Origin: Escherichia coli
GTDB lineage: Bacteria; Pseudomonadota; Gammaproteobacteria; Enterobacterales; Enterobacteriaceae
Direction: 5' to 3' (one strand)
Length of the DNA: 64,000 nucleotides
Assembly: GCF_003334335.1 (NCBI RefSeq)
Contig: NZ_QOWQ01000027.1
Below are positions 2,915-6,251 of this stretch, one piece after another. Each line of letters starts with the position of its first letter. The stretch's first letter is position 1. Below the pieces are notes generated by a model. That model searched no databases, was not told the DNA's origin, and saw only the letters and a list, made by a program, of their open reading frames with translations. The translations under genes were made by a program, and so were the position numbers.

Positions 2915-4915
2915 ATGTTACGTAATGGAAATAAATATCTCCTGATGCTGGTGAGTATAATTATGCTCACCGCGTGCATTAGCCAGTCAAGAACATCATT
3001 TATACCGCCACAGGATCGCGAATCTTTACTCGCCGAGCAACCGTGGCCGCATAATGGTTTTGTAGCGATTTCATGGCATAACGTTGAAGACGAAGCTGCC
3101 GACCAGCGTTTTATGTCAGTGCGGACATCAGCACTGCGTGAACAATTTGCCTGGCTGCGCGAGAACGGTTATCAACCGGTCAGTATTGCTCAAATTCGTG
3201 AAGCACATCGAGGAGGAAAACCGCTACCGGAAAAAGCTGTAGTGCTGACTTTTGATGACGGCTACCAGAGTTTTTATACCCGCGTCTTCCCAATTCTTCA
3301 GGCCTTCCAGTGGCCTGCTGTATGGGCCCCCGTCGGCAGTTGGGTCGATACGCCAGCGGATAAACAAGTAAAATTTGGCGATGAGTTGGTCGATCGAGAA
3401 TATTTTGCCACGTGGCAACAAGTGCGAGAAGTTGCGCGTTCCCGGCTCGTTGAGCTCGCTTCTCATACATGGAATTCTCACTACGGTATTCAGGCTAATG
3501 CCACCGGCAGCTTATTGCCTGTATATGTAAATCGTGCATATTTTACTGACCACGCACGGTATGAAACCGCAGCAGAATACCGGGAAAGAATTCGTCTGGA
3601 TGCTGTAAAAATGACGGAATACCTGCGTACAAAGGTTGAGGTAAATCCACACGTTTTTGTTTGGCCTTATGGCGAAGCGAATGGCATAGCGATAGAGGAA
3701 TTAAAAAAACTCGGTTATGACATGTTCTTCACCCTTGAATCAGGTTTGGCAAATGCGTCGCAATTGGATTCCATTCCGCGGGTATTAATCGCCAATAATC
3801 CCTCATTAAAAGAGTTTGCCCAGCAAATTATTACCGTACAGGAAAAATCACCACAACGGATAATGCATATCGATCTTGATTACGTTTATGACGAAAACCT
3901 CCAGCAAATGGATCGCAATATTGATGTGCTAATTCAGCGGGTGAAAGATATGCAAATATCAACCGTGTATTTGCAGGCATTTGCTGATCCCGATGGTGAT
4001 GGGCTGGTCAAAGAGGTCTGGTTTCCAAATCGTTTGCTACCAATGAAAGCAGATATTTTTAGTCGGGTTGCCTGGCAATTACGTACCCGCTCAGGTGTAA
4101 ACATCTATGCGTGGATGCCGGTATTAAGCTGGGATTTAGATCCCACATTAACGCGAGTAAAATACTTACCAACAGGGGAGAAAAAAGCACAAATTCATCC
4201 TGAACAATATCACCGTCTCTCTCCTTTCGATGACAGAGTCAGAGCACAAGTTGGCATGTTATATGAAGATCTTGCCGGACATGCTGCTTTTGATGGCATA
4301 TTGTTCCACGATGATGCTTTGCTTTCAGATTATGAAGATGCCAGTGCACCGGCTATCACGGCTTATCAGCAAGCAGGCTTTAGCGGGAGTCTGAGCGAAA
4401 TTCGACAAAACCCGGAGCAATTTAAACAGTGGGCCCGCTTTAAAAGTCGTGCGTTAACTGACTTCACTTTAGAACTTAGTGCGCGCGTAAAAGCCATTCG
4501 CGGTCCACATATTAAAACTGCACGAAATATTTTTGCACTTCCGGTAATACAACCTGAAAGTGAAGCCTGGTTTGCACAGAATTATGCTGATTTCCTAAAA
4601 AGCTATGACTGGACCGCTATTATGGCTATGCCTTATCTGGAAGGTGTCGCAGAAAAATCGGCTGACCAATGGTTAATACAATTGACCAATCAAATTAAAA
4701 ACATCCCTCAGGCTAAAGACAAATCTATTTTAGAATTACAGGCACAAAACTGGCAGAAAAATGGTCAGCATCAGGCTATTTCTTCGCAACAACTCGCTCA
4801 CTGGATGAGCCTATTACAACTGAATGGAGTGAAAAACTATGGTTATTATCCCGACAATTTTCTGCATAACCAACCTGAAATAGACCTTATTCGTCCTGAG
4901 TTTTCAACAGCCTAG
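2915..4915 (+). CDS. pgaB: PgaB, PGA N-deacetylase lipoprotein; 666 aa, ends at a TAG where K-12 (672 aa, from memory) would continue 6 more codons
   Basis: Track ORF with lipoprotein signal (LTAC), recognised as PgaB; stop at 4913-4915 followed in frame by tat ccg aaa aat gat taa. Confidence 0.93.
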
Positions 4916-4925
4916 TATCCGAAAA

Positions 4926-6251
4926 ATGATTAATCGCATCGTATCGTTTTTTATATTATGTCTGGTGTTATGCATACCCCTATGCGTAGCGTACTTTCAC
5001 TCTGGTGAACTGATGATGAGGTTCGTTTTCTTCTGGCCGTTTTTTATGTCCATTATGTGGATTGTTGGCGGCGTCTATTTCTGGGTCTATCGTGAACGCC
5101 ACTGGCCGTGGGGAGAAAACGCACCAGCTCCCCAGTTGAAAGATAATCCGTCTATCTCCATTATCATTCCCTGTTTTAATGAGGAGAAAAACGTTGAGGA
5201 AACCATACACGCCGCTTTAGCACAGCGTTATGAGAACATTGAAGTTATTGCCGTAAATGACGGTTCAACAGATAAAACCCGTGCCATCCTGGATCGCATG
5301 GCTGCACAAATTCCCCATTTGCGGGTCATTCATCTGGCGCAAAACCAGGGGAAAGCCATTGCGCTTAAAACCGGAGCTGCCGCGGCGAAAAGTGAATATC
5401 TGGTGTGCATTGATGGCGATGCGTTATTAGACCGCGATGCGGCGGCATATATTGTGGAACCGATGTTGTACAACCCGCGTGTGGGTGCCGTAACCGGTAA
5501 TCCTCGTATTCGAACACGTTCTACCCTGGTGGGTAAAATTCAGGTTGGCGAGTATTCCTCAATTATTGGTTTGATCAAGCGAACCCAGCGTATCTATGGA
5601 AACGTATTTACCGTTTCCGGTGTTATTGCCGCATTTCGTCGCAGCGCCCTGGCAGAAGTGGGTTACTGGAGTGACGATATGATCACCGAAGATATTGATA
5701 TTAGCTGGAAGCTGCAGTTGAATCAGTGGACGATTTTTTACGAGCCACGGGCGCTGTGCTGGATATTAATGCCTGAAACGTTAAAAGGGCTGTGGAAACA
5801 GCGCCTGCGCTGGGCTCAGGGCGGTGCAGAAGTATTCCTCAAAAATATGACAAGGTTGTGGCGCAAAGAAAACTTTCGAATGTGGCCGCTGTTTTTTGAA
5901 TACTGCCTGACGACAATATGGGCCTTCACCTGCCTGGTCGGTTTCATTATTTACGCAGTCCAACTTGCCGGTGTACCGTTAAATATTGAATTGACACATA
6001 TCGCTGCGACACATACTGCCGGAATATTATTGTGTACGTTATGTTTACTGCAATTTATTGTCAGCCTGATGATCGAGAATCGCTATGAGCATAATCTGAC
6101 TTCATCGCTTTTCTGGATTATTTGGTTCCCGGTTATTTTCTGGATGCTGAGCCTGGCAACGACATTGGTATCATTTACACGAGTCATGTTGATGCCTAAA
6201 AAGCAACGCGCCCGTTGGGTAAGTCCTGATCGCGGGATTCTGAGAGGTTAA
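4926..6251 (+). CDS. pgaC: PgaC, PGA synthase (family 2 glycosyltransferase)
   Basis: 441 aa ORF, membrane GT2 protein recognised as PgaC. Confidence 0.95.

Follow-up and report, generated by a model that had tools for sequence, protein, structure and literature searches.

The closest described relative of the gene analysed here is PgaB (YcdR) of Escherichia coli K-12, a protein of 672 aa that carries the same two domains (PF01522 and PF14883), is encoded in the same operon, and ends at a TAA codon overlapping pgaC by 8 nt. Several PDB entries describe its structure: 4F9D and 4F9J comprise residues 42-655, without the C-terminal tail, 4P7L and related entries cover residues 310-672, and 3VUS is another PgaB structure. 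Two papers on PgaB contain nothing on residues 656-672, and published constructs have the tail either deleted (42-655) or kept, with none found that compares the two. The wild-type junction between pgaB and pgaC is of the same kind as the ATGA-type overlapping stop/start junctions of bacterial operons; a literature search for pgaB/pgaC coupling, or for the allele described below, yielded nothing specific.

A second point of comparison is provided by amber hot spots that arise through deamination of 5-methylcytosine, a process that is countered by very-short-patch (VSP) repair (PMC12606429, PMC2715241). Those of lacI occur at CCAGG Dcm sites (Coulondre, Miller, Farabaugh and Gilbert, 1978; reviewed in PMC12606429). 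In lacI, as is proposed below for pgaB, a G:C to A:T change at the methylated inner cytosine of CCWGG gives rise to UAG. The two cases differ in the strand involved, as the lacI codons change from CAG to TAG, whereas in pgaB the methylated cytosine would reside on the non-coding strand, such that TGG becomes TAG.

An amber codon replaces Trp667 of PgaB

The DNA analysed is a stretch of 64,000 nt from E. coli, hereafter called the window, in which the end of pgaB is surrounded by the following features:

483 to 2906, plus strand: pgaA, 807 aa, intact (open reading frame (ORF) list; positions 1-4913 show no differences from strain EC416).
2915 to 4915, plus strand: shortened allele of pgaB, 666 codons plus TAG (ORF list and translation; Pfam PF01522 and PF14883).
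4911 to 4915, no strand assigned: former Dcm site, CCTGG in the wild type and CCTAG here (sequence-context check).
4913 to 4915, plus strand: amber codon in place of Trp667 (A in the window, G in C600, EC416, PEC1009 and GDSC2BY4G).
4916 to 4925, plus strand: untranslated 10-nt spacer ahead of pgaC (window sequence).
4916 to 4933, plus strand: orphaned codons YPKND (4916-4930) and ancestral TAA (4931-4933) (window sequence and translation).
4926 to 6251, plus strand: pgaC, 441 aa, ATG at 4926-4928, without a Shine-Dalgarno (SD) sequence, nucleotide-identical to EC416 (ORF list and comparison).
6253 to 6666, plus strand: pgaD, 137 aa, intact (ORF list and EC416 comparison).

Direct reading of the window around the stop (aca gcc TAG tat ccg aaa aat gat taa tcg) reveals that the amber codon terminates pgaB after 666 codons, and translation through it (PEFSTA*YPKND*) indicates that the truncated product of 666 aa lacks the tail WYPKND. 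The underlying difference is a G-to-A change at position 4914, which converts Trp667, the sixth-from-last codon, from TGG to TAG. The first-pass annotation of this DNA had reported the stop, the in-frame YPKND codons following it and the length of the product, and its coordinates are exact. It had also given K-12 a 672-aa protein with TGG at this codon, which is borne out by the K-12 derivative C600 (locus L001), whose pgaB DNA differs from that of the window solely at 4914. The same G is present in the three nearest complete genomes, EC416, PEC1009 and GDSC2BY4G. In these genomes, RefSeq annotates wild-type PgaB as a 672-aa protein (WP_000945561.1), residues 1-666 of which are identical to those of the window product, and the gene shares an 8-nt ATGATTAA overlap with pgaC. 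The removal of this overlap, which had likewise been noted, leaves the 10-nt spacer listed above. The window is 99.4% identical to K-12 over 25 kb, as compared with only 7-9 differences per 25 kb for EC416 and its kin.

The ORFs of the window match the EC416 RefSeq annotation in their pgaA-pgaB-pgaC-pgaD arrangement, and precomputed assignments place a CE4 deacetylase domain (PF01522) and a C-terminal GHL13/GH153 domain (PF14883) on the 666-aa product. Judged by these sequence features, the gene is that of PgaB, the PNAG deacetylase/hydrolase lipoprotein (GH153) of pgaABCD.

Among 5,426 complete RefSeq E. coli genomes, a 61-mer spanning the site found matches in 4,240, none of them at 100%, and by this search the other 1,186 do not contain this pgaB/pgaC junction sequence. 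A 30-mer centred on TAG matched none of the 5,426 genomes, a null result that is valid because the TGG version of the same 30-mer, used as a control, matched 4,192. Thus, the comparison of TGG with TAG that had been proposed for other genomes finds TGG in K-12 and TAG in none of the complete genomes.

Three other changes are common to the window and an independent assembly of the same region (L011, described below) and are absent from EC416, PEC1009 and GDSC2BY4G. These changes, at 9789, 11310 and 13389, are all non-synonymous (efeO Q247K, efeU G36S, putP W26L). Lineage-specific changes alter proteins in four of four cases within 8.5 kb, which is compatible with chance. Between yccJ and agp, the window lacks one base that is present in EC416 (position 25915). 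Collinearity with EC416 stops at about 60,410, right after tRNA-Ser(tga) (60280-60367), and the last 3.6 kb of the window, where the matching genes bear the annotations YadA-like family protein, DUF4376 and YkgJ, is covered to at least 80% in just 10 of the 5,426 complete genomes; this end of the window looks like a tRNA-associated island. The start of phoH, on the minus strand, is called inconsistently: its longest ORF (6716-7693) has a TTG start and 325 aa, the RefSeq annotation has 262 aa (6716-7504), and the lengths called on related contigs are 262, 307, 325 or 354 aa.

The amber allele occurs on unrelated haplotypes

The exact 666-aa protein is found on about 60 public contigs, corresponding to 122 blocks of the contig index, and its NCBI accessions include EES1382567.1, EEV7105082.1, EFJ9147146.1 and EFJ9424124.1. 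Carrier loci were fetched from 10 places and grouped at a threshold of at most 5 differences, which resulted in 7 groups. A true stop is present in all 10 places, and in every one it is TAG.

One of these loci, L011 (GCA_012738575.1), comes from an independent assembly and matches the window without a single difference across 14,915 nt, TAG included; by this extent of identity the two are the same clone. Over the same length, L011 shows 5 differences from EC416. Five loci (L005, L006, L007, L010 and L014) share a K-12-like flanking haplotype that departs from C600 at 3-5 positions over about 10 kb (for L005, 3 differences in 10,061 nt). The haplotype of L009 resembles that of O91 STEC and has 2 differences from the TGG genome RM7190 in 16,458 nt. 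L012 differs from the TGG strain Z0117EC0133 at a single position in 16,406 nt, namely the base at 4914. Further flanking variants are represented by L008 and L013. The carrier haplotypes are 129-193 SNPs apart, and for each of them there is a TGG genome of the same type at a distance of 1-5 SNPs. In another species, the same codon reads gcc TAG tac (locus L015, positions 3604-3629; Logan SRR33471199); this enterobacterial pga operon encodes a PgaB that is 58% identical, and its wild-type pgaB/pgaC overlap would be 11 nt.

The TAG allele is real and rare, being seen in draft assemblies and in none of the complete RefSeq genomes. As judged from the haplotypes, it arose or spread repeatedly, on several unrelated backgrounds and once in another species, and carriage of this SNP is therefore not sufficient to assign a genome to a lineage. 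The earlier description of the amber codon as a clean strain marker must be given up, as TAG is embedded in at least four flanking haplotypes that are unrelated to one another; its position within a Dcm CCTGG site would render the allele prone to homoplasy.

Trp667 is encoded within a Dcm site

The codon and its neighbors read aGCCTGGt in the wild type and aGCCTAGt in the window, with position 4914 constituting the fourth base of CCTGG. In a Dcm site, the bottom-strand partner of the G at this position is the inner cytosine, which carries the methyl group. There are four CCWGG sites in pgaB, all of which take the form GCC-TGG (W80, W387, W552 and W667). Among six species, CCTGG occurs at codon 667 only together with a preceding GCC codon, and the lineages with this combination are the two that show TAG. 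The dcm gene itself lies outside the 64-kb window.

We propose that a natural G-to-A transition at 4914 made Trp667 of PgaB an amber codon, and assign this explanation as a whole a probability of about 0.65. By the most likely route, deamination would affect the bottom-strand cytosine of CCTGG that is methylated by Dcm, and the resulting T:G mismatch would escape VSP repair to leave CCTAG. Deamination of Dcm 5-methylcytosine is, in our estimation, a somewhat likely source of the TAG codon, and a hot-spot mechanism of this type would also explain its independent recurrence. The ancestral sequence is a CCWGG site whose changed base pairs with the inner cytosine, and the G:C to A:T change is recurrent, invariably giving TAG, on at least four haplotypes and in one other species. 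These observations lend moderate support to the status of W667 as a Dcm hot spot.

It is also conceivable, although unlikely, that TAG had a single origin and was subsequently spread by short homologous-recombination tracts, or that a single TAG clone later acquired new flanks by recombination. The pgaB genes of all carriers are nucleotide-identical over at least 2.4 kb around 4914 (the window is identical to groups C and D across 2796-5752 and to group B across 1-5203), so a transferred tract would leave no trace, and the flanking phoH-efe region is highly mosaic. However, such a history needs at least 4-6 transfers of an allele that is seen in 0 of 4,192 complete genomes, and must accommodate the placement of each carrier haplotype within a few SNPs of a TGG genome. 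Moreover, TAG in the 58%-identical orthologue cannot stem from transfer, and the site resides in a known hot-spot context. Recurrent transition at 4914 is consequently the reading that we prefer.

Stop codons at other Trp positions of pgaB

Public protein data contain exact N-terminal prefixes of PgaB ending before each of its 20 Trp codons, on 9 to 286 contigs each. At non-Dcm codons, many of these prefixes derive from genes truncated by the end of a contig, as is the case in 8 of 10 places at both W630 and W613, and Logan contigs repeatedly terminate at window positions of about 4750 and 4802. True stops were present in 10 of 10 places at W667 and at W552, in 7 of 10 at W586, and in 2 of 10 at each of W630 and W613, numbers that represent carriers rather than events. 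Counted in the same manner, as carriers and not events, the ratio of TAG to TGA is 19:1 at Dcm sites versus 7:4 at the others. The non-Dcm codon W586 has undergone several independent TAG and TGA events.

Two quantitative tests of hot-spot status were rejected. Contig counts of exact Trp-to-stop prefixes display a weak enrichment for the four Dcm codons, for which clone size, prefix length and partial genes at contig ends are confounders; contig-end artefacts, together with the tendency of shorter prefixes to match more backgrounds, make the counts unsuitable for this purpose. Transitions in the fetched loci affect 5 of 72 Dcm positions versus 140 of 7,257, a difference that is inflated since the loci of two sites were selected, and when these two ascertained sites are left out the comparison (3 of 70 versus 1.9%) is uninformative.

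One of these stops defines a second truncation allele:

4566 to 4570 (codons 551-552): PgaB of 551 aa, with a stop at W552 (P0005, P0004; loci L018-L027).

Like the 666-aa allele, it has the GCC-TGG Dcm context, is found in multiple lineages (9 of 10 places with TAG, at least four haplotypes), and is of similar abundance (55 and 59 contigs). It differs in that 121 residues of the C-terminal domain are lost, a clear loss of function, whereas the 666-aa allele loses the tail alone. In several carriers of the W552 stop, pgaA is split into two ORFs, which suggests decay of the whole operon.

Stop alleles at every Trp codon of pgaB, several of them accompanied at W552 by a broken pgaA, might instead reflect parallel selection rather than mutational bias, with weakened or lost PNAG export being favored in some niches and removal of the tail representing one route to it. 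The 1,186 complete genomes without this junction and the strong conservation of the lost residues are in keeping with this proposal. We nevertheless consider it improbable, as the carriers are of varied sources and exhibit no phenotype or niche signal, and the rest of the pga operon is intact in the window. In addition, given the number of public E. coli assemblies, every single-step nonsense change is expected to have been sampled. An error of sequencing or assembly, or an amber codon engineered in the laboratory, to which only the absence of TAG from complete RefSeq genomes might point, can for practical purposes be set aside, since the same base appears in at least 24 independently assembled contigs (NCBI, ENA and Logan), one of them identical over 14.9 kb, and the isolates are wild.

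Initiation of pgaC downstream of the new stop

The pgaC start codon lacks a ribosome-binding site of its own, as would be typical of the downstream gene in a translationally coupled pair. The calculated anti-SD duplex of pgaC amounts to +0.1 kcal/mol in the window and -2.8 kcal/mol in the wild type, and those of pgaA, pgaB and pgaD range from -5.9 to -6.5 kcal/mol. An overlap of 4-11 nt between pgaB and pgaC is conserved in six species. Given the lack of an SD sequence and the conserved overlap, translation of pgaC probably depends on ribosomes that complete pgaB.

In the wild type, the upstream stop overlaps the downstream start by 8 nt, whereas in the window it neither overlaps nor abuts it, the two being separated by a 10-nt gap. 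From the general behavior of termination-reinitiation, a stop codon 10 nt before an ATG without an SD sequence should still permit reinitiation. With the stop 10 nt ahead of the start, coupling would take the form of downstream reinitiation rather than the back-stepping of ATGA-type junctions. There is no competing start codon between the TAG and the pgaC ATG, and the predicted local mRNA structure (-12.2 versus -11.8 kcal/mol) and accessibility (0.373 versus 0.377) are unchanged. The effect of the TAG on pgaC translation would be small, with reinitiation occurring downstream of the new stop, and pgaB-pgaC coupling probably survives in the TAG allele.

The conserved tail of PgaB

An AlphaFold model of PgaB built with a 61-sequence alignment has a mean pLDDT of 88.5 and a final helix at residues 656-663, with a pLDDT of 61 for the block 661-670 and values below 50 for residues 669-672. 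A model made without an alignment (pLDDT 39) was useless and was discarded. The structures of residues 42-655, together with the low-confidence tail of the model, argue that the PgaB fold is independent of the tail and that the catalytic fold is untouched by the stop. Structure 6AU1 of Bordetella BpsB is uninformative regarding the tail, as its chain extends only to about the position corresponding to residue 667.

Full-length PgaB ends in a conserved aromatic-Pro tail, which is WYP in Enterobacterales and is missing from the window allele. All of 61 homologues with 52-85% identity retain W667 and P669, and conservation of Y668 among them is 90% or higher. At 33-53% identity, the motif S/T-x3-[YFW]-P is present within the last 22 residues of 43 of 98 full-length representatives, as compared with 0.9% in internal windows. 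Synonymous variation among species at the Tyr and Pro codons of the tail is indicative of selection acting on the protein. For the same reason, retention of WYP as an RNA signal for pgaC was rejected as the main cause of its conservation, although the GG of TGG may have a minor role, given that TGG and the pgaC ATG lie a constant 13 nt apart.

A flexible yet conserved terminal motif of this type suggests a contact with a partner. We infer that the truncation probably does affect PgaB, but mildly, with the invariance of W667 and P669 and the presence of the tail motif in distant homologues weighing against a mild effect. The first-pass annotation had considered the loss of the tail functionally minor, which is plausible as far as catalysis is concerned. 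A more far-reaching notion, in which the aromatic-Pro tail would be an undescribed docking motif for PNAG processing or export (for example, by contacting PgaA or the polymer) and its codon, as part of a Dcm hot spot, a recurrent natural down-switch of PNAG biofilm, is speculative and in our view doubtful.

Implications

The TAG allele is an ordinary, rare nonsense polymorphism of a known gene and is already present in public databases. A textbook mutational process would explain it, and pgaB is a well-studied biofilm gene that is often inactivated. The homoplasy of the SNP at 4914 serves as a warning that it is unsuitable by itself as a lineage marker. The single mildly notable point is the loss of a conserved, uncharacterised tail motif. 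As a natural variant, the allele could be used to probe the in vivo role of the conserved PgaB tail, as well as the dependence of pgaC, which lacks an SD sequence, on the geometry of its start relative to the pgaB stop. If the tail does prove to be a docking motif, the 666-aa allele would constitute a ready-made separation-of-function mutant.
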